The notes beneath the pieces are model-generated. The model made no database searches and was not told the origin of the DNA. It was given only the letters and a program-made list of their open reading frames with translations. A program made the position numbers and the translations under genes. A stretch of 64,000 nt of DNA from Oscillospiraceae bacterium. Lineage in GTDB: Bacteria; Bacillota; Clostridia; Oscillospirales; Butyricicoccaceae. Positions 9,168 through 53,304 of the stretch are shown here, piece by piece (position 1 is the stretch's first letter; each line of letters starts with the position of its first letter). The stretch covers positions 3,088 to 67,087 of the forward strand of contig SVKN01000003.1 of assembly GCA_015068445.1 (NCBI GenBank), written 5' to 3'.

Positions 9168-9244
9168 CCGGGTGTAGCGCAGTTTGGTAGCGCGCTTGAA
9201 TGGGGTTCAAGAGGCCGCAGGTTCGACTCCTGTCACTCGGACCA
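9168..9244 (+). tRNA. tRNA-Pro (anticodon GGG), CCA encoded
   Basis: Manual cloverleaf fold. Acceptor CCGGGTG/CACTCGG, D arm GCGC-AGTTTGGTA-GCGC, anticodon arm CTTGA-ATGGGGT-TCAAG, T arm GCAGG-TTCGACT-CCTGT, discriminator A plus CCA. Confidence 0.9.
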
Positions 9245-44933: not shown

Positions 44934-44951
44934 CGTGAAAGGAGAGCTTTG

Positions 44952-46562
44952 ATGAAGCAGCGCGCCATCCTGAAAAACAAAACGTATCTTTATCTGACCG
45001 AGTTCTTCTCCGGTATGTCGGTCATGGCCGTGGAGCTGGGGGCCAGCAGGCTGCTGGCGCCGTATTTCAGCTCGTCCCAGATCGTGTGGACCATCATCAT
45101 CGGCACGATCATGATCGCCATGGCGCTGGGAAACATCTACGGCGGCCGCTCAGCGGACAAAAACCCCGATCCCGACCGGCTGTACACGCGCATCCTCATC
45201 GCCGCGCTGTGGATCGGGCTGATCCCGGTGGCGGGCAAGTATATCATCATCGGCATCACGGGCGTGATGATCTTCGCCATCGACACGAACCTGCTGATCG
45301 CCGCGGCCTTCGCCGCGTGCATGGTGATCTTCGTCTTCCCGCTGTTCCTGCTGGGCACGGTGACGCCGTCCCTGGCCAAGTACACCATGGACAGTCTGGG
45401 TGACAGCGGCAAGGTGGTGGGCATGCTGAACGCCGCCAACACCATTGGCTCGATCATCGGCACATTCGTGCCCACCTTCGTCACGATCCCCGCCGTGGGG
45501 ACGGCCGTGACGTTTCTGATCTTCGCCGGGATCCTGCTGGCGCTGGCCGCCGCCTATTTCCTCTCTGCCGGGATCGGCAAGGGGAAGACGATCGTCTCCT
45601 GCGTGATCCTGGCGCTGTGCTGCGTCTTCGGCAGCGGCAGCAGCTTCGCCTTCTGGGAGACCGATCTGACCGTGGAGGACGAGTCGATCTACAACTACCT
45701 GCGCGTCTATGAGGACGACCGGGCCGTGGCGCTGAGCACCAACGTGCTGTTCGGCGTCCAGTCGGTGTATCAGAAGGACGGCGGGCTGACGGGGATGTAT
45801 TACGACTACGCCATGGCGGCGCCCTATATGGCGGGCGTCCGGGAGGCCGGGCGGCCCCTGGACGTGCTGATCCTCGGCATGGGCACGGGCACCTACGCCA
45901 CCCAGTGCAGCCGGTACTTCGGCGAGATGAACGTGGAGGGCGTGGAGATCGACGAGAAGATCACCGCGCTGGCCCGGGACTATTTCCAGCTGCCCGACAG
46001 CGTGCCCGTGGTCACCTACGACGGCCGGGCGTACCTGCAGGCGCTGGAGAGCGACAGGCTCTACGACGTCATTCTGGTGGACGCCTTTCAGGACATCACG
46101 ATCCCCTTTCAGATGGCGTCCCGGGAGTTTTTCACGCTGGTGCATGACCATCTGCGGGACAGCGGCGTCATGGTGGTGAACATGAACATGCGCGGCCAGA
46201 CCGAGGACAGCATCAACGACTGGCTCAGCGACACCATCGCGTCCGTGTTCCCCGTCGTCTGTACCGCCGACGTCCGCGGCTCCACCAACCGGGAGCTGTT
46301 CGCCGGGCGCGGCGACCTGATCGGGACCTTTGACGAAAACCTGCTGGAGGAGACGAATGTGGCCATGGTGGACCTGATGGCCAGAGTCCGGGAGGGTCTG
46401 ACGGTCTACGATGCGGGCGGCCGGGTCATGACCGACGACCGCGCCCCCGTGGAGCTGCTGAGCATGCGCGCCATGGACGAGCTGATCTCCGACGAGGTGT
46501 CGTATTACAAGGGCCAGGTCCAGGGCATGAGCATCGGCGAGATACTGGACATGCTGCAATAA
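44952..46562 (+). CDS. fused polytopic membrane domain / spermidine-synthase-like methyltransferase-fold protein
   Basis: Seven to eight N-terminal TM helices, then VLILGMGTGTYA...VEGVEIDEKI...DVILVDAF...SREFF...GVMVVN (SAM-dependent aminopropyltransferase fold). SD AAAGGAGAG. Confidence 0.75.
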   Translation: MKQRAILKNKTYLYLTEFFSGMSVMAVELGASRLLAPYFSSSQIVWTIIIGTIMIAMALGNIYGGRSADKNPDPDRLYTRILIAALWIGLIPVAGKYIIIGITGVMIFAIDTNLLIAAAFAACMVIFVFPLFLLGTVTPSLAKYTMDSLGDSGKVVGMLNAANTIGSIIGTFVPTFVTIPAVGTAVTFLIFAGILLALAAAYFLSAGIGKGKTIVSCVILALCCVFGSGSSFAFWETDLTVEDESIYNYLRVYEDDRAVALSTNVLFGVQSVYQKDGGLTGMYYDYAMAAPYMAGVREAGRPLDVLILGMGTGTYATQCSRYFGEMNVEGVEIDEKITALARDYFQLPDSVPVVTYDGRAYLQALESDRLYDVILVDAFQDITIPFQMASREFFTLVHDHLRDSGVMVVNMNMRGQTEDSINDWLSDTIASVFPVVCTADVRGSTNRELFAGRGDLIGTFDENLLEETNVAMVDLMARVREGLTVYDAGGRVMTDDRAPVELLSMRAMDELISDEVSYYKGQVQGMSIGEILDMLQ

Positions 46563-46573
46563 AGAAATAATGG

Positions 46574-46607
46574 AAAAGCCCTGCGGGTCCTGCCCGCAGG
46601 GCTTTTT
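46574..46607. terminator. bidirectional terminator
   Basis: AAAAGCCCTGCGGG-TCCTG-CCCGCAGGGCTTTTT. Confidence 0.8.
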
Positions 46608-46620
46608 GCGTGGTCAAGGT

Positions 46621-47451
46621 TTACTTCTTCGTCCAGACGGGGATGGACGAGCCCTTGGAGACCTCCTCGATGACCTTGATCACCTCGTCGGTCTGGTAGG
46701 CGGCGACGACCTTCTTGAAGGCCTCGTTGTCCTTGTCCTCGGTGCGGGCGACGATGACGTTGATGTAAGGGTTGTCCGCGCCTTCGGCCACAGGCTCCAG
46801 ATAGACGGCGTCCTGGGAGGGGATCAGGCCGTTGTCCACGGCGTGGCCGCTGTTGATCATGGCAGCCGTCACATCGGGCAAGAGCCCGGCGGTCAGAGAG
46901 GCCTCCACCTCGATGAACTCGATGTTCAGCGGGTTAGAGGTGATGTCGGTGACGAAGGGCGTGTACCCGGCGGCGGGATCGACCTCGATGACGCCCGCGC
47001 CCTCCAGGACCTTCAGAGAGCGGCCGCCGTTCGTCACGTCGCTGGGAATGGCGATCTTGTCGCCTTCCTTGAGCTCGGAAATATCGCTGATTTTCTGGCT
47101 GAACAGGCCCAGGGGCGCGATGACCGTCTCGCCGATGACCGTCAGGTCATAGCCGTTCTTCTCGCAGTCGTTGCGCAGGTAGGCGTAATGCTGGAAGGCG
47201 TTGAGGTCGATCTCGCCGTCGCTGAGGGCCTGATTGGGCAGGGTGTAGTCGGAAAACGAGACGATCTGCAGGTCGATGTTCTGGTCGGCCAGCGTCTTTT
47301 TTGCCACCTGCCAGGCTTCGTTGGATTCGCCGACGACGCCCAGCTTGATGACTGTGGGCTCGCCGTTCGCTGCGGGCGCTTCCTCGCTGCCGCAGGCGGC
47401 GAGAGTGAACAGAAGGGCCAGAAGGCTCAGGATCGCAAGTGTCTTTTTCAT
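46621..47451 (-). CDS. metQ: methionine ABC transporter substrate-binding lipoprotein
   Basis: Lipobox LFTLAAC. NlpA/MetQ motifs IKLGVVG, LNAFQH, IAIPSD.TNGGR and YINVIVAR. SD TAAGGAGAA. The tracked upstream extension to 47943 overlaps metI and is an artefact. Confidence 0.9.
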   Translation of the reverse strand: MKKTLAILSLLALLFTLAACGSEEAPAANGEPTVIKLGVVGESNEAWQVAKKTLADQNIDLQIVSFSDYTLPNQALSDGEIDLNAFQHYAYLRNDCEKNGYDLTVIGETVIAPLGLFSQKISDISELKEGDKIAIPSDVTNGGRSLKVLEGAGVIEVDPAAGYTPFVTDITSNPLNIEFIEVEASLTAGLLPDVTAAMINSGHAVDNGLIPSQDAVYLEPVAEGADNPYINVIVARTEDKDNEAFKKVVAAYQTDEVIKVIEEVSKGSSIPVWTKK

Positions 47452-47465
47452 GGTGATTCTCCTTA

Positions 47466-48143
47466 TCAGTGAGTCGTTTTTTTGATGATGAAATTGCCAA
47501 GGGCCTGCACCGAGAACACCAGGGCCAGGATGATGATCATGGCGGCGTAGGTGCAGTCGGTCTGCTGGCGCTGGTGGCCCCACATGATGGCGAAGTTGCC
47601 GAGACCGCCGCCGCCCACGGCGCCGGCCATGGCCGTCAGGCCGATGAGGCTGATCAGCGTGATGGTGGTGCCACGGACGATGGCCGGGATGCTCTCCCGC
47701 AGGTAGACCTTGAAGAGGATCTCCAGCGGGCTGTCGCCCATGCTCTGGGCAGCCTCCACGAGACCGTGGTCCAGCTGGGCCAGCGCGGCCTCGATCTGGC
47801 GGGAGAAGAAGGGCACTGTGCCGAAGATCAGCGGCAGGATCGCGCCCCGGGTGCCGATGGCCGTGCCCATGACCGCGCGGGTCAGCGGCACGAGGGCCGT
47901 GAGCAGGATGACGAAGGGGATCGAACGGAAGATGTTGATGCACTTGTCCAGCACGGCGTAGAGCTTCGGATGCTCCATCACGCCGCCCCGGCGGGTGGCC
48001 GTCAGCACGACGCCGACGAACAGGCCGATGCAGAAGGACACCAGACCCGACACCGCCACCATAGACAGCGTCTGCAGGATGGCACTGAGGAACTGAGGGC
48101 CCTTGTCGGCCATATTGGGGAAAAGCGAGGACAGGATGGTCAT
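47466..48143 (-). CDS. metI: methionine ABC transporter permease
   Basis: MetI-like permease (EAAQSMGDSPLEILFKVYLRESIPAIV), five TM. Confidence 0.9.
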   Translation of the reverse strand: MTILSSLFPNMADKGPQFLSAILQTLSMVAVSGLVSFCIGLFVGVVLTATRRGGVMEHPKLYAVLDKCINIFRSIPFVILLTALVPLTRAVMGTAIGTRGAILPLIFGTVPFFSRQIEAALAQLDHGLVEAAQSMGDSPLEILFKVYLRESIPAIVRGTTITLISLIGLTAMAGAVGGGGLGNFAIMWGHQRQQTDCTYAAMIIILALVFSVQALGNFIIKKTTH

Positions 48144-49171
48144 CGGTCGATCACCTCGATCTGTACGTTGTTTTCGCTGAGATATTTGACGGCGTCGCGG
48201 ACGTTGTCCGGCTCGCCGGAGAAGATGAGGCCCAGGTTGCCAATGGTGGCGTCCCGGATGACCTCCATGCTGCCGAAGATGATGTTGCAGTCCACGTCGA
48301 ACTGCCGGGAGACCCGGGAGATCAGCGCCTGATCGGCGCTGCGGCCCAGGTATTTGAGCCGCGCCAGCACCTCGCCGGGCTTGAGGGCCACCACGGGGGA
48401 CTGCTCCTCCACCATCTCCGTGAGCTTGCTGAGGTTGCCCGTGCTGTCCACGAAGGACTTCGTCACCGTGGCCTGCGGGGCGGAGAAGACGTCGAGGACG
48501 TCGCCCTGCTCCACGATGAAGCCGTTTTCCATGACGGCCACGCGATCGCAGATCTCCTTGACCACGGCCATCTCATGGGTGATGACGACGATGGTCAGCC
48601 CCAGCGTGCGGTTGATCTTTTTCAAAAGCGCGAGGATCGAGCGCGTGGTGGCGGGGTCCAGAGCCGAGGTGGCCTCGTCGCACAACAGGACCTTGGGCGA
48701 GGAGGCGATGGCGCGGGCGATGGCCACGCGCTGCTTCTGGCCGCCGGACAGCTGGGAGGGGTAGGCGTTTTCCTTATCGGTCAGGTCCACCAGCTCCAGC
48801 AGCTCCCGCACCCGGGCGGCGATCTGCTCCGCGGGCAGCTTCTGCTTTTTCAGCGGCCATGCGATGTTGTGGAACACGGTGCGGGAGGGCATGAGGTTGA
48901 ACTGCTGGAAGATCATGCCCATGGACGTGCGGGCGTGGCGCAGGGCCTTGTCGTCCAGCGCCGTCAGCGTCCTGCCGTCCACGGTGACCGTACCGCTGTC
49001 GGGCCGCTCCAGCAGATTGATGCAGCGGACCAGCGTCGACTTGCCCGCGCCGGACAAGCCGATGATGCCGAAAATCTCCCCCGCATGGATATGCAGGGTG
49101 ACGTTTTTGACGGCCGCCACCGCGCCGGACTCTGTGTGAAATGTCTTTGAAACGTTTTCCAGACGGATCAT
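48140..49171 (-). CDS. metN: methionine ABC transporter ATP-binding protein
   Basis: GLSGAGKST, LSGGQKQRVAIARA, LLCDEATSALD, plus a C-terminal NIL/ACT-like domain (ISRVSRQFDVDCNIIFGSME...). Confidence 0.92.
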   Translation of the reverse strand: MIRLENVSKTFHTESGAVAAVKNVTLHIHAGEIFGIIGLSGAGKSTLVRCINLLERPDSGTVTVDGRTLTALDDKALRHARTSMGMIFQQFNLMPSRTVFHNIAWPLKKQKLPAEQIAARVRELLELVDLTDKENAYPSQLSGGQKQRVAIARAIASSPKVLLCDEATSALDPATTRSILALLKKINRTLGLTIVVITHEMAVVKEICDRVAVMENGFIVEQGDVLDVFSAPQATVTKSFVDSTGNLSKLTEMVEEQSPVVALKPGEVLARLKYLGRSADQALISRVSRQFDVDCNIIFGSMEVIRDATIGNLGLIFSGEPDNVRDAVKYLSENNVQIEVIDR

Positions 49172-49266
49172 GATAAGCTCCTTTTATCGGTTATTTTGTA
49201 TCAGGAGCGTCACATTCGTTCCTTCAGGACAGGTCTTTTGCTCATCCCTTCTCACCCTTTCCGCAC

Positions 49267-49305
49267 AAAAGAAAAAACCGGCCATCGCTGAAAGCGACGA
49301 CCGGT
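49267..49305 (-). terminator. intrinsic terminator within the metNIQ leader (attenuator)
   Basis: Minus strand reads ACCGGTCGTCGC-TTTCA-GCGATGGCCGGT followed by TTTTTTCTTTT. It lies about 100 nt upstream of the metN ATG. Confidence 0.6.
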
Positions 49306-49337
49306 CGTATGATAAAACTGCTGTTTCTCCGGCGGTT

Positions 49338-49448
49338 TTACGACGTTTTTCTGCGGTCATCGCTGAAAATGGGCATGCACATGCACATGGTACGCATAGC
49401 GCGCATCATGGAGCACATGCTGCAGCTGTTCAGACGAATACCGTTCAT
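49338..49448 (-). CDS. putative Met/Cys-rich leader peptide (36 aa)
   Basis: Minus-strand ORF MNGIRLNSCSMCSMMRAMRTMCMCMPIFSDDRRKTS, too short for the ORF track. An SD-like GAAAGGAAAGG lies 10-14 nt upstream. The ORF sits between the promoter and the attenuator terminator. Confidence 0.4.
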   Translation of the reverse strand: MNGIRLNSCSMCSMMRAMRTMCMCMPIFSDDRRKTS

Positions 49449-49485
49449 TCTGTCGGAGCCTTTCCTTTCAAGAAACATTGAAGCC

Positions 49486-49514
49486 ATTATAATCTACTTT
49501 GGCGAGTTTGTCAA
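49486..49514 (-). promoter_or_regulatory. consensus promoter of metNIQ
   Basis: Minus strand reads TTGACA - 17 nt - TATAAT (perfect hexamers). Confidence 0.65.
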
Positions 49515-49534
49515 CACTTTTCAGCGATAAAGTG

Positions 49535-49580
49535 AAAAAGAATGAAAACAACGGGGCGCCGGCCTGCAGACCGGCGCCCC
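49535..49580 (-). terminator. intrinsic terminator of the pur operon (after purL)
   Basis: GGGGCGCCGG-(8 nt)-CCGGCGCCCC, followed on the minus strand by GTTGTTTTCATTCTTTTT. Confidence 0.7.
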
Positions 49581-49617
49581 GCAATGATTCGGACAGTTTT
49601 ACGCGACTGAAGCGACG

Positions 49618-52600
49618 TTATTTGAAATACTCGACGCCGCCCTCGAACAGAGGCTGGAACTTGTTGCCGGCGATGTTCTTCGCAACGTTCGCGCCCGTGC
49701 GCTCGGAATGGCCCATCTTGCCCAGCACGCGGCCGTCGGGGCTGGTGATGCCCTCGATGGCGGCCACCGATCCGTTGATGTTGATATCGATGTCCATGTT
49801 GGGTCTGCCCTTCTCGTCGCAGTACTGGAAGGCGATCTGACCGTTCTTCGCCAGCTCGGTCAGCGTCTTGGGGTCAGCCATGAAGCGGCCCTCGCCGTGG
49901 GAGAACGGGATGTTGTACACCTCGCCCACGCGGCACTTGAGCAGCCAGGGAGACTTGACGGAGGAGACGCGGGTGTAGGAGTAGATCGACTGGTGGCGGC
50001 CGATGGTGTTGAACGTCAGCGTGGGGCTGTGGGCGTCCAGCTCGGTGACTCTGCCGTAGGGCAGCAGGCCCAGCTTGATCAGCGCCTGGAAGCCGTTGCA
50101 GATGCCCAGTGCCAGACCGTCGCGGTTGTACAGCAGCTCGTGGATCTGCTCCGTGACGGCGGGATTGCGGAAGAAGGCCTGGATGAACTTGCCGGAGCCG
50201 TCGGGCTCGTCGCCGCCAGAGAAGCCGCCGGGGATGATGAGCATCTGGCTGGACTTGAGGGCCTCGATCAGCTCGCTGGCCGATTCCTCCAGCGCGGCGG
50301 GGGACATGTTGCGGATCAGGACGATCCTGCCCTTGCCGCCGGCGCGCTCCACGGCGCGGAGGGTGTCGAACTCGCAGTTGGTGCCCGGGAAGACGGGGAT
50401 CACGGCCTGCGGCGCGGCGACCTTCGTCATGGCGTGAGAGGCGCGGACCTTGTAGCTGAAGGCCGGGACGTCGCGGGCGATCTGGGACGTCTTCGTGGGG
50501 AAGATGGGCTCCAGCGTGCCCGTCAGCGCCGATTTGACCATGTCGAGAGACAGGTCGGCGGAGCGGAGGGCGATGGACTTGCCGCCCGTGCGGCCCAGCA
50601 GGACGCCCTCGCCGCACTCCTCGCTGAGCTCGGCGATGATCCCGCCAACGTTGCCGCCGAACAGGCGCGTTTCATCGAAGCCGTCCTCGAGGATGAAGCC
50701 GATATCGTTGCCCACGGCCATCTTGCACAGGCCCTCGATGATGCCGCCGCCCGTGACGGACCAGGCCGACAGGACAGTGCCGCCCTCGGTGAGGCAGTGG
50801 ATCTTCTTGAGGAAGGGCAGGACCTGCTCCAGCTCGCGGGGGCACTCGAAGTAATAGACATAGCTGCCCTTCTGCTTGAACTCCGGGGACAGGACCTTGT
50901 CGGCCCCCAGGGTGGTGATGGCGAAGGAGATCAGCGTGGGCGGCACGTCGATGTCGTTGAAGGTGCCGCTCATGGAGTCCTTGCCGCCGATGGCGGCCAT
51001 TTTCAGCGCGCGCTGTGCCTCGTAGGCGCCCAGGAGCGCGGCGAAGGGCTTGCCCAGACGGTCGGGCTCGCGGTTTGGCTTTTCAAAGAACTCCTGCAGG
51101 CTGAGATAGACGCCCTCGGGGTCGCAGCCCGCGGCCGCCAGCTTGGAGGCCGAGGAGACCACCGACAGCATGGCACCGTGGTAGGGGCTCTCGGCCATCA
51201 GGTAGGGATCGAAGCCGTAGGACATGACGGAGGCCGTGTTCGTCTCCCCCTGGATCAGCGGGAGCTTGGCGGCCATGACCTGGGTGGGGGTCAGCTGGTT
51301 CTTGCCGCCGTAGGGCATCAGCACGGAGGACGCGCCGATGGAGCCGTCGAAGCGAGTGCCCAGGCCCTTCTGCAGGCAGAAGCGCTCGGAGGACAGCAGG
51401 TCCGTCACCGCCTCGGCGATGTTGCCGTGGGGCAGGTCGCGCACGGCCAGGGACTGGACAGGCACGTGGACGGCGGCGTGCTTCTCCGCGCCGTTGGAAT
51501 TGAGGAACTCGCGGGAGATGTCGCACACGACGTCGCCGCGCCAGGTCATGCGGAGCCGGGGCTCCTCGGTGACCTTGGCCACCAGGGCGACTTCAAGGTT
51601 CTCGCCGTGGGCCAGGGCCGTGAAGGTCTCCACATCCTTGGGGGCCAGCACGACGGCCATGCGCTCCTGGGATTCGGAGATGGCCAGCTCGGTGCCGTCG
51701 AGGCCGTCGTACTTCTTGGGGACCTTGTCGAGGTCGATCTCAAGGCCGTCCGCCAGCTCGCCGATGGCGACGGAGACGCCGCCCGCGCCGAAGTCGTTGC
51801 AGCGCTTGATCAGCCGGGTGGCCCGGGGATCGCGGAACAGGCGCTGGAGCTTGCGCTCCTCGGGGGCGTTGCCCTTCTGGACCTCGGCGCCGCAGGTCTC
51901 GAGAGACTGGCTGCTGTGGCTCTTGGAGGAGCCGGTGGCGCCGCCGATGCCGTCGCGGCCGGTCTTGCCGCCCAGCAGGACGATCACATCGCCGGGGGCG
52001 GGGCGCTCACGCACGACGTTGGAGGCAGGGGCCGCCGCCACCACCGCGCCGGTCTCAAGGCGCTTGGCGACGTAGCCGGGATGGTACAGCTCGGAGACGA
52101 GGCCCGTGGACAGACCGATCTGGTTGCCGTAGGAGCTGTAGCCCTGAGAGGCCTTGCGGCAGATGGTGCGCTGAGGCAGCTTGCCCGGCAGCGTCTGATC
52201 CAGCGGAAGGTTGGGGTCCGCCGCGCCCGTGACGCGCATGGCCTGATAGACGTAGGCTCTGCCCGACAGCGGGTCGCGGATAGCGCCGCCCAGACAGGTG
52301 GCCGCGCCGCCGAAGGGCTCGATCTCCGTGGGATGGTTGTGGGTCTCGTTCTTGTACATCAGGAGCCAGGGCTCCTTGACGCCGTCCACGTCCGCCTCGA
52401 TGCGGATGGAGCAGGCGTTGATCTCCTCGCTCTCGTCGAGATTCGTCAGCACGCCCTCGTGCTTGAGGACCTTTGCGCCCGCGGTGGCGATGTCCATCAG
52501 CGTCACGGGGCGGGCGGCGGCTTTCTCGGGACCGTAGACCTCTTCCCTGCCCTGCAGGTAGTGGTCGTAGGCGGCCCTGACCGTGTCGTCGTCGATGGCG

Positions 52601-53304
52601 ACGTCGTCGAGACGGGTGAGGAAGGTGGTATGGCGGCAGTGATCGGACCAGTAGGTGTCGATCATGCGCAGCTCGGTCATGGTGGGGGCGCGGCCCTCGG
52701 AGCGGAAATAGTCGCGGAGAAAGGCCAGGTCGTGCTCGTCCATGGCGAGGCCGTAGCGCGCGATGTAAGCGTTCAGGTCAGCCTCGTCCATCAGGTCGTC
52801 CAGCACGGCGACCTTGTCGGGATGGGGATAGTTGTCCTCCAGGCTCTCGGGCTTTTCGGGGGACGCCTCGCGGCACTCCACGGGGTTGATGAGGCTCTTG
52901 CGGATCCTGTCCTTGTCCTGCTCGGTCAGCTCGCCCTCGAAGACGTAGACGACGGCGTTCTTGACCAGCGGGCGCTCGCCGCGGGTCATCAGAGCGATGC
53001 ACTGGCGGCAGGAGTCGGCGCGCATGTCGAACTGACCGGGCAGCGCCTCGACGATCAGCGTCCAGTCGCCCTCGGCGGGCATGGTCTCGTGATAGACGTC
53101 GTCGCAGGCAGGCTCGGAAAAGACGCCCCTGCAGGCCAGCTCGTAGGTGGGCTCGTCGATACCCTGACAGTCGTAGCGGTTGAGGATGCGCACGCGGCGG
53201 AGGCCGCCGATGCCCTCCTCGGCCGTCAGGCGCTCCAGCAGGGCCTTCGCCTCGGTATCAAAGCCGCGGCGCTTTTCGGTGAAGCATCTGAATACCTGAG
53301 CCAT
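49618..53304 (-). CDS. purL: phosphoribosylformylglycinamidine synthase, single-chain large form
   Basis: 1228 aa. The N-terminal PurS-like, central FGAM synthetase (HNHPTEIEPFGGAATC) and C-terminal glutaminase (ICNGFQAL, FSHGEGRF) domains lie in one polypeptide. Confidence 0.95.
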   Translation of the reverse strand: MAQVFRCFTEKRRGFDTEAKALLERLTAEEGIGGLRRVRILNRYDCQGIDEPTYELACRGVFSEPACDDVYHETMPAEGDWTLIVEALPGQFDMRADSCRQCIALMTRGERPLVKNAVVYVFEGELTEQDKDRIRKSLINPVECREASPEKPESLEDNYPHPDKVAVLDDLMDEADLNAYIARYGLAMDEHDLAFLRDYFRSEGRAPTMTELRMIDTYWSDHCRHTTFLTRLDDVAIDDDTVRAAYDHYLQGREEVYGPEKAAARPVTLMDIATAGAKVLKHEGVLTNLDESEEINACSIRIEADVDGVKEPWLLMYKNETHNHPTEIEPFGGAATCLGGAIRDPLSGRAYVYQAMRVTGAADPNLPLDQTLPGKLPQRTICRKASQGYSSYGNQIGLSTGLVSELYHPGYVAKRLETGAVVAAAPASNVVRERPAPGDVIVLLGGKTGRDGIGGATGSSKSHSSQSLETCGAEVQKGNAPEERKLQRLFRDPRATRLIKRCNDFGAGGVSVAIGELADGLEIDLDKVPKKYDGLDGTELAISESQERMAVVLAPKDVETFTALAHGENLEVALVAKVTEEPRLRMTWRGDVVCDISREFLNSNGAEKHAAVHVPVQSLAVRDLPHGNIAEAVTDLLSSERFCLQKGLGTRFDGSIGASSVLMPYGGKNQLTPTQVMAAKLPLIQGETNTASVMSYGFDPYLMAESPYHGAMLSVVSSASKLAAAGCDPEGVYLSLQEFFEKPNREPDRLGKPFAALLGAYEAQRALKMAAIGGKDSMSGTFNDIDVPPTLISFAITTLGADKVLSPEFKQKGSYVYYFECPRELEQVLPFLKKIHCLTEGGTVLSAWSVTGGGIIEGLCKMAVGNDIGFILEDGFDETRLFGGNVGGIIAELSEECGEGVLLGRTGGKSIALRSADLSLDMVKSALTGTLEPIFPTKTSQIARDVPAFSYKVRASHAMTKVAAPQAVIPVFPGTNCEFDTLRAVERAGGKGRIVLIRNMSPAALEESASELIEALKSSQMLIIPGGFSGGDEPDGSGKFIQAFFRNPAVTEQIHELLYNRDGLALGICNGFQALIKLGLLPYGRVTELDAHSPTLTFNTIGRHQSIYSYTRVSSVKSPWLLKCRVGEVYNIPFSHGEGRFMADPKTLTELAKNGQIAFQYCDEKGRPNMDIDININGSVAAIEGITSPDGRVLGKMGHSERTGANVAKNIAGNKFQPLFEGGVEYFK

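Follow-up and report, generated by a model that had tools for sequence, protein, structure and literature searches.

A Met/Cys-codon-rich leader ORF and a probable transcription attenuator upstream of metNIQ in Clostridia

The metNIQ leader and its alternative helices

The sequence analysed here, a window of 64 kilobases (64,000 nucleotides, nt) from an Oscillospiraceae bacterium, carries the genes metN, metI and metQ of a methionine importer, preceded by a leader of about 300 nt as measured from the -10 box to the metN start codon at 49171. All leader features and the metNIQ operon lie on the minus strand, and coordinates refer to the window (Table 1). Within the leader lies a 36-codon open reading frame (ORF), designated uORF1, which encodes 8 Met and 4 Cys residues (the latter all by TGC), with 7 Met and 4 Cys in codons 9-25 alone. 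It is followed by an intrinsic terminator and can form helices that exclude this terminator, an arrangement that probably serves as a transcription attenuator.

The promoter of the leader matches the sigma-70 consensus at 12 of 12 positions, and from its position transcription is predicted to start at about 49479. To rank ORFs by Met/Cys density, a score (Met plus half-Cys over 12 residues) was applied to stop-to-stop frames. uORF1 is the sole frame that scores 7 in the whole window on both strands, and the three further frames that reach a score of 5 are all located inside or antisense to long genes. Two alternative start codons, either in frame upstream or leaderless, were rejected: ATG 49487 overlaps the -10 box, and the equivalent of ATG 49478 in a relative, L082, meets a TGA after 7 codons. 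The only conserved start is ATGAACGGT / ATGACAGGT. The sequence GGCTTCAATGTTTCTTGAAAGGAA, directly 3' of the -10 box (49476-49485 in the window, about 2010-2040 in L082), is identical in the window and L082, and its conservation exceeds that of most of the leader, although the two MetN proteins are only 76% identical. It holds an ATG that is in frame with uORF1 in the window, a frame that is closed by TGA in L082.

Four segments of the leader, numbered 1 to 4 in the order of transcription, can engage in alternative pairings. Segment 3 can pair with segment 2 or with segment 4, and segment 2 with segment 1 or segment 3, and the full 1:2 / 2:3 / 3:4 architecture is present. Segment 2 is a near-copy of segment 4 of the terminator, the two being near-identical direct repeats (TTTCAGCGATGACCG and TTTCAGCGATGGCCG) in which TTTCAGCGATG[A/G]CCG occurs twice, at 49368-49354 and 49292-49278. 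Segment 2 begins about 11 nt past the last Met codon of uORF1 and ends 14 nt before its stop codon. Within it, GCGATGACCG (49363-49354) pairs with CGGTCGTCGC (49303-49294) over 10 base pairs (bp), one of which is G-U, and the window 2:3 duplex of -25.4 kcal/mol is clearly better than those of dinucleotide shuffles (z = -5.4). For the 1:2 duplex (-16.3 kcal/mol) the window sequence alone gives a weak signal (z = -1.5).

Folding of the transcript truncated before the 3' arm of the terminator yields one long antiterminator, composed of an 11-bp outer helix and the inner helix, with -27.7 kcal/mol, z = -4.15 and a 40% share of the ensemble. In the full-length transcript the terminator dominates the fold (-37.8 kcal/mol). 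A terminator scan places its stem at 49306-49276, with 14 pairs (8 G-C), a 3-nt loop and a T-run to 49267. The leader as a whole also folds better than shuffled sequences (z = -4.5). The Met/Cys run itself builds a hairpin between segments 1 and 2, which might act as a pause or timing element.

These results bear out what the original prediction had read from the letters alone, namely a perfect TTGACA-17-TATAAT promoter, a leader of some 300 nt, a 36-codon ORF with the same coordinates and residue counts, and a 10-bp pairing of an ORF segment with part of the 5' arm of the terminator. Its claim that the two helices are mutually exclusive agrees with the terminator scan and with the alternative folds, in which the truncated transcript adopts the antiterminator and the full transcript the terminator.

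Table 1. Coordinates of leader elements and of the metNIQ operon in the window
Feature	Coordinates	Strand	Details
Sigma-70 type promoter	49486-49514	-	TTGACA 49514-49509, 17-nt spacer, TATAAT 49491-49486
Shine-Dalgarno-like GAAAGGAAAGG	49459-49469	-	10 nt 5' of the leader ATG; read from the sequence
Leader ORF (uORF1) MNGIRLNSCSMCSMMRAMRTMCMCMPIFSDDRRKTS	49338-49448	-	ATG 49448, TAA 49340-49338; 36 codons plus stop
Segment 1 CGGTATTCGTCTGAA	49429-49443	-	leader codons 2-7; partner is segment 2; in minimum-free-energy fold
Met/Cys-run hairpin	49373-49423	-	conserved core 49418-49379; built by the Met/Cys codons themselves
Segment 2 TTCAGCGATGACCG	49354-49367	-	leader codons 28-32; 5' strand of antiterminator
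Inner antiterminator helix	49304-49346	-	ACGTCGT with ACGAC plus apical stem; TAA 49340-49338 at 5' strand
Intrinsic terminator	49267-49306	-	segment 3 49305-49294, loop TTTCA, segment 4 49288-49277, then TTTTTTCTTTT
uORF2 MSKRPVLKERM	49210-49245	-	11 codons plus TGA; purine-rich GGGTGAGAAGGG upstream; between terminator and metN
Helix masking metN ribosome-binding site	49171-49215	-	in minimum-free-energy fold
metN-metI-metQ operon	46621-49171	-	metN 49171-48140, metI 48143-47466, metQ 47451-46621
Terminator 3' of metQ	46574-46606		perfect 14-pair hairpin, T-runs on both sides

Conservation in close relatives and across Clostridia

Close relatives of the locus were collected by a metagenome scan with the C-terminal domain of MetN, which yielded only two loci, and through MetN homologues and contig look-ups. 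Six of them were informative (L082, L083, L085, L088, L092 and L098); the MetN proteins of the relatives are 64-76% identical to that of the window, and L098 was added through its leader peptide. Comparisons of seven sequences comprise these six and the window sequence (WIN). Uninformative were L084 (short contig), L094-L097 (near-copies of L088), L090 and L091, which contain an S-box-like sequence as judged by eye, and L086 and L087 (MetN 64% identical), where no leader ORF, riboswitch or terminator was found in the 450 nt upstream of metN. In the latter two loci this region (L086 750-1200, L087 375-823) consists of A/C-rich, G-poor degenerate repeats (…CAACAGTAACCAATACCAAACAGTAACC…).

The -35 TTGACA and a -10 box are found at the equal relative position in L082, L083, L088, L092 and L098, and GAAAGG is kept 7-13 nt 5' of the leader ATG in L082, L083, L085, L088 and L092. 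The start codon, the stop codon and the Met/Cys run are kept in all six leader peptides, the Met run codon for codon: MNGHRLCSMNMCSVMRSMRTMCMCMPKKRGGRPAV (L082), MTGYVFGMMMMCSMMCAMYTMCMCMPKNNGNLVKSLS (L083), MTGFVFGMMMMCGMMCEMYTMCMCMPENKDDRVISSLI (L085), MTGYRFNMAIMCVMMCSMYTMCMAMPKKAMTLGPVTAWG (L088), MTGHSFGMMIMCGMMHEMCTMCMCMPKNKDDHTALALE (L092) and MKICRSAMNMCSVMRMMRTMCMCMPKTRGGPGGAV (L098). Apart from one codon missing in L098 (3 nt), the alignment of the first 26 codons has no gap, and the frame is conserved up to a Met-Pro, as MCMCMP or, in L088, MCMAMP; an N-terminal MTG(Y/F/H)xF is likewise conserved in this close subfamily. The tails of the peptides diverge in their amino-acid sequence. 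In the RNA, every tail holds a segment complementary to the 5' arm of its own terminator, as can be seen from the pairs of antiterminator segment and terminator arm in WIN (GCGATGACCG / CGGTCGTCGC), L082 (GCGGCGGCCG / CGGCCTCCGC), L085 (GATGACCG / CGGTCATC), L092 (AAGGATGACC / GGTCATCCTT) and L088 (GCGATGACC / GGTTATCGC). Segment 1 (codons 2-7) pairs with segment 2 in every close relative, and L088 has the identical sequence GGTTATCGCTTT in segments 1 and 3.

In a swap test, cognate partners were compared with partners taken from other relatives (seven sequences, 5000 permutations). The mean energy was -24.9 kcal/mol for cognate against -15.9 kcal/mol for swapped 2:3 partners and -25.7 against -17.1 kcal/mol for 3:4 partners, with 0 of 5000 permutations as good in either case, and -20.9 against -14.3 kcal/mol for 1:2 partners, with 6 of 5000 as good. 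In each of the seven sequences the 2:3 duplex is also stronger than in dinucleotide shuffles (z from -2.5 to -5.5), and in five of them the antiterminator is the minimum-free-energy fold of the truncated transcript; for the 1:2 duplex the mean z is -2.1, not significant in every sequence. Judged from these comparisons, helices 1:2, 2:3 and 3:4 are maintained by co-variation among the close relatives. The Met/Cys-run hairpin is part of the minimum-free-energy fold of all seven sequences; its 15 core pairs (columns 31-48 with 54-70) form in all seven, one cell excepted, two pairs show compensatory changes (CG/UA and GC/GU/AU), and its covariation score is higher than that of 497 of 500 shuffles.

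For a wider survey, the 600 nt upstream of metN were scored at 80 loci from representative genomes of distinct species, with MetN 44-59% identical. A Met-rich upstream ORF was found at 32 loci (40%) with a score of at least 5, and at 33 with a score of at least 4.5, while only 0.3% of 1292 control stretches (600 nt each, taken from these loci) and 1.25% of the antisense strands scored at least 5. All 33 ORF-bearing loci belong to Clostridia, the carriers being Agathobaculum, Butyricicoccus, Intestinibacillus, Oscillospiraceae, Lachnospiraceae and unclassified Clostridiales. Their leader peptides include MLSIRMNMCMMCGFARFSAMQR (Agathobaculum), MVVRCSMAMMTMCMCMCENMYNFCRAVR, MFAANTMDNCMMMDMCGMMMVMCRMFEYAK... 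(Lachnoclostridium) and MSNRTNLQMDMAMMSGMMMDMCRMFVCLNI (Lachnospiraceae). Among the carriers are cultured strains, namely Agathobaculum hominis M2 (L025), A. ammoniilyticum (L029) and Butyricicoccus sp. Marseille-Q5471 (L040). Nearly all distant members have AGGAGG 6-10 nt 5' of the ATG, and a strong hairpin plus T-run terminator separates ORF and metN in 31 of 34 family members. The peptides are 22-48 residues long and unrelated in sequence outside the Met run, with an overall composition of 22% Met and 10% Cys. The enrichment in Cys is a property of the whole family and uses both codons (TGC 91, TGT 28 times). Among 39 distinct ORFs, 267 of 298 internal ATGs (90%) are in frame, and only 21 and 10 lie in the two other frames. 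This is the pattern to be expected from selection on the translation of Met codons, rather than on a peptide or an RNA motif. The proposal that the Met/Cys run would be found in frame upstream of metN in related genomes, and that both helices would co-vary, was thus borne out by the six close relatives and the 33 distant loci for the former and by the swap test for the latter.

Pairing partners differ between subfamilies. In the Agathobaculum / Butyricicoccus subfamily (12 sequences) there is a separate antiterminator, in which the FARFS-coding GCTCGTTTTTC pairs with GGAAAACGAGC, and GGAAAACGAGC overlaps the terminator arm. In the other subfamilies, the usual partner of the antiterminator is the sequence directly 5' of the terminator arm, with an overlap of only about 4 nt. 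Searching with a profile of 11 leader peptides gave 12 small proteins already called as genes, and gene callers list several leader members as genes of 35-39 residues.

Known regulatory RNAs were sought with Rfam models. At gathering thresholds no match to S-adenosylmethionine (SAM) riboswitches, T-boxes or other riboswitches was obtained in the whole window, in which a tRNA gene at 9168-9241 on the plus strand is the only match at this threshold. Within 49100-49650 nothing matched the leader at E<=10, the best score inside it being 14 bits against a threshold of 52 bits; covariance-model matches to SAM-I / S-box (RF00162) and the other SAM classes and to T-box (RF00230) were not found, and neither did the Trp, His, Leu, Thr or leu/phe leader models match it at E<=10. 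The absence of an S-box or T-box, which had been read by eye, is in agreement with this search, both at gathering threshold and at E<=10. Weak matches near the leader (BjrC68, ctRNA and similar) fall on the terminator of the upstream, purL-like gene or far below threshold, and were judged to be due to chance. The same search recovered SAM-I riboswitches and T-boxes elsewhere. A scan of 40 metN loci that lack the ORF gave a T-box in five (L004, L005, L010, L044 and L057; directly upstream of metN in four, farther up in one) and a SAM-I riboswitch in two (L012 and L066); neither element was found in the 28 ORF-bearing loci scanned. Since these elements are absent from the scanned ORF-bearing loci and present in some loci without the ORF, the leader ORF fills the niche of known Met/SAM sensors.

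Probable attenuation by a translating ribosome and competing explanations

The metN leader has every defining feature of leader-peptide attenuators that can be examined in silico, i.e. a leader ORF with a ribosome-binding site conserved in frame, a cluster of cognate codons, a terminator before metN, and an antiterminator that excludes this terminator and has its 5' strand placed for control by ribosome position. We consider it probable that the leader is a ribosome-mediated leader-peptide transcription attenuator, which senses charged elongator tRNA-Met, and possibly tRNA-Cys, and controls metNIQ. The original prediction had proposed such trp/his-style attenuation by Met/Cys codons, and at the level of sequence it is supported by the lack of Rfam matches, the conservation of the frame and the co-variation of the helices.

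Transcription would start about 30 nt 5' of uORF1. With scarce Met-tRNA, a ribosome translating uORF1 would stall in the Met run and keep both the hairpin and segment 1 away from segment 2, which would then be free to pair with the emerging segment 3, so that RNA polymerase would read into metNIQ. With plentiful Met, the ribosome would reach the UAA. The inner antiterminator helix ends right at the UAA and has this stop codon at its 5' strand, so that a terminating ribosome would melt the helix and abut segment 2, which would explain how it disables the antiterminator. Alternatively, the ribosome would leave and helix 1:2 would re-form. Along either route helix 3:4 would form and transcription would stop at 49267, and the same outcome, with both 1:2 and 3:4 formed, is expected if uORF1 is not translated. 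The sequences show the elements themselves, their conservation, the in-frame enrichment in Met and Cys and the co-variation of the three helices; translation of uORF1, stalling at its Met codons and the direction of the response are inferred.

Several points weigh against this interpretation. Taken singly, the sequences of WIN, L082 and L092 give only weak support to helix 1:2 (z from -0.6 to -1.5). When the 5' arm of the terminator alone was tested against the ORF region, the duplex was significant in WIN and L082 only, and not in most of the distant subfamilies; as the partner of the antiterminator mostly lies outside the terminator arm, this arm-only duplex test is too narrow. Family-wide, the support for attenuation consists of sequence and predicted folds. 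The spacing from GAAAGG to ATG in the window's subfamily, 10-13 nt, is longer than optimal. The original prediction had called the Shine-Dalgarno (SD) sequence weak or distant, which holds for the spacing in this subfamily; the GAAAGG motif is itself conserved in the close relatives, and distant members have AGGAGG at normal spacing. A ribosome at the UAA had been expected to cover segment 2, whereas 14 nt separate the end of segment 2 from the stop codon, so that a terminating ribosome would abut it without fully covering it, leaving the Met-replete route to termination uncertain. In many Bacillota, RNA polymerase has been reported to outrun the ribosome; attenuation under such conditions would need a pause site, and none was identified in the leader. 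Starvation for Met may also limit initiator tRNA, which would oppose induction. Finally, the Cys codons might be partly structural, as AUG-UGC repeats are self-complementary and build the hairpin.

The hairpin also lends itself to another explanation, in which the leader is a structured RNA that binds a ligand or a protein (an unrecognised riboswitch, or the target of an RNA-binding protein), with the CAUG-rich hairpin as sensor and the ORF as incidental. The occurrence of the hairpin in all seven close sequences with its two compensatory pairs, the stability of the whole-leader fold relative to shuffles, and changes inside the run (Arg/Cys, Arg/Tyr) that look driven by base pairing are all in line with such an RNA. 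Distant members, however, share neither primary sequence nor hairpin and yet keep SD, ATG, stop codon and in-frame Met codons, 267 ATGs are in frame against 31 out of frame, the enrichment is specific to strand and frame, no Rfam model matches, and a translation sensor would be expected to have a run of cognate codons ahead of the transporter for that amino acid. Hence we regard a structured RNA with an incidental ORF as improbable.

If translation of uORF1 is accepted, its product could itself be the functional entity, a Met/Cys-rich micro-protein (metal- or redox-active, the precursor of a modified peptide, or an accessory of the transporter) that is co-transcribed with metNIQ. Several members are indeed predicted as proteins of 35-39 residues and recur on many contigs, and MTG(Y/F/H)xF and MCMCMP are conserved in the close subfamily. 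Yet a strong terminator separates the ORF from the transporter genes, length and sequence outside the Met run vary across the family, the C-terminal tail is free at the protein level in the close relatives while it tracks the terminator at the RNA level, and a Pfam domain is recorded for no member, which makes a micro-protein still less probable than a structured RNA. The least probable of the three is a DNA operator, with palindromes in the CATG-rich tract bound by a repressor that blocks initiation or elongation. CATG and GCATGC are palindromes, the distance of the tract from the upstream promoter is 55-105 bp, and it had been cautioned at the outset that ATG would also abound on the opposite strand of such a tract and that a protein might bind there. 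This caveat lost its force in the family, where antisense Met enrichment is at background level, no common DNA palindrome exists and the ATGs are enriched in frame only; moreover, an operator needs no SD, stop codon, downstream terminator or co-varying antiterminator. Even jointly these three explanations account for a small part of the probability, and a very small part is left for explanations that we have not thought of, which leaves ribosome-mediated attenuation as the interpretation that we adopt.

Further elements of the locus and relation to known control systems

A second mini-ORF, uORF2, is situated in the spacer that separates the terminator from metN. Its length of 11 codons is the same in all five relatives that have the spacer region (L082-L085 and L092), and it ends in L(K/R)ERM-stop in L082, L083, L084 and L085 and in RRM-stop in L092. 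Changes in this ending are synonymous or conservative, with Leu encoded by CTG, CTC, CTG, TTG and CTT, and Glu by GAA or GAG. As uORF2 was not found in the 33 more distant family members, it belongs, judging by sequence, to the close subfamily only. Its last codons, together with the anti-SD CGCTCC (49209-49204) that its stop codon abuts, pair in the predicted fold with the SD GGAGC of metN (49181-49177) and the start region. Equivalent masking helices with different sequences, e.g. TTCTCACCTTT with AAAGGAGAGAA, occur in L082, L083, L084 and L092. In this model, translation of uORF2 would unmask the ribosome-binding site of metN, and uORF2 may be a layer of translational control for metN.

It is a rather unlikely extension that the leader is a two-tier methionine sensor, combining the Met/Cys-codon attenuator with a uORF2 that gates the translation of metN. 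At low Met-tRNA, pausing of a ribosome at the last sense codon of uORF2, which is always AUG, could keep the masking helix open; alternatively, the nascent uORF2 peptide could stall termination on a metabolite (Met or SAM), again with the helix open. With its mixed Met and Cys run, the first tier would in addition integrate both sulfur amino acids. A response of the uORF2 step to Met is speculation. Small ORFs between terminator and metN that end in Met-stop (…ISQM*, …KAGM*, …PDWM*) were also seen in L048 (about 2819-2910) and L070 (about 2832-2871); they resemble the ending of uORF2, which could be a coincidence.

The products of the operon were assigned with NCBIfam, MetN to TIGR02314 (at 415 bits, below the equivalog cut-off of 499.7), MetI to PRK10782 and the MetQ/NlpA lipoprotein to TIGR00363. 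The hairpin at 46574-46606 lies between the end of metQ on the minus strand and the end of a convergent ORF of 537 residues (44949-46562, plus strand), and looks like a bidirectional terminator. Upstream of the leader, a very strong terminator (49551-49582, minus strand, 14 pairs of which 12 are G-C) is located 3' of a gene of 1228 residues (49618-53304) that looks like purL from its sequence; the hairpin of this terminator is altered in L081. The purL-metNIQ neighbourhood is common to L083, L088 and L092, as matched by C-terminal protein sequences.

Not all leaders precede metN. The leader peptide P0128 of L098 lies upstream of an M20-family amidohydrolase (TIGR01891), and the same module, with near-identical leaders, is found before this gene in L098-L102 (L098 2430-2700), where the L098 module has its own TTGACA promoter, GGAG and terminator. 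Its place behind such a leader suggests that the M20 amidohydrolase is part of a methionine-supply regulon, e.g. as an enzyme that frees Met from acylated or peptide forms. Two other leader proteins retrieved by the profile precede metN-metI operons.

Accounts of how Gram-positive bacteria regulate their methionine genes usually name S-box riboswitches, Met T-boxes and a small number of transcription factors. SAM-I riboswitches and Met T-boxes resemble the metN leader in their position before metNIQ and in the terminator/antiterminator platform, but they sense SAM, or uncharged tRNA bound by the RNA, whereas the sensor here would be the translating ribosome. Classical leader-peptide attenuators are those for Trp, His, Leu, Thr, Ile/Val and Phe, plus Cys in Actinobacteria. 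In Proteobacteria they include trpL, hisL, leuL, thrL, ilvL and pheL (Rfam Trp_leader, His_leader, Leu_leader and Thr_leader), which share with the metN leader a short ORF with cognate codons, the 1:2 helix, the 2:3 antiterminator and the 3:4 terminator, and a decision made by the position of the ribosome. The metN leader differs from them in its codons (AUG mixed with UGC/UGU), in its host (a Gram-positive of the Clostridium class) and in its target, which is an importer (in L098 an amidohydrolase) rather than a biosynthetic operon. Moreover, its regulatory codons form a conserved hairpin, and its segment 2 lies upstream of the stop codon and not downstream.

Another Bacillota leader-peptide attenuator is the leu/phe leader of Lactococcus. 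Further examples from this phylum are the His leader of hisZ/hisS (Naville and Gautheret 2010, PMC2965389) and the leucine-rich attenuator peptide of ilv in Staphylococcus aureus (PMC5794164). These systems have phylum and logic in common with the metN leader and demonstrate that ribosome-mediated attenuation can replace T-boxes in Gram-positives; they respond to other amino acids with unrelated sequences and genes, whereas the metN leader is broadly distributed in Clostridia (33 of 80 metN loci). Sulfur-amino-acid-responsive small ORFs before sulfur genes are found in Actinobacteria, both as leader ORFs with Cys codons (Seliverstov et al. 2005, PMC1262725) and as polycysteine leaderless ORFs in mycobacteria (bioRxiv 10.1101/834739). 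Cys is enriched in the metN leaders too, but in contrast to the Actinobacterial ORFs, which are Cys-only and often leaderless, they are dominated by Met and have a canonical SD and an intrinsic terminator. The full-text literature searched, of which the coverage is incomplete, contained no account of a methionine-codon attenuator, and an earlier description is possible.

If our interpretation is correct, the leader would represent a third, translation-based way of methionine control in a large share of gut Clostridia, where others have a T-box or SAM-I riboswitch. It would be a test case for sensing by means of AUG codons, which are rare, with methionine also needed for initiation, and it bears on ribosome-dependent attenuation in a phylum with a supposedly loose coupling of transcription and translation. 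Many of the tiny Met-rich "genes" in metagenome catalogues would be regulatory leaders rather than micro-proteins, and a Met-rich leader ORF followed by a terminator would provide a simple marker for annotating genes of methionine supply, such as the M20 amidohydrolase.

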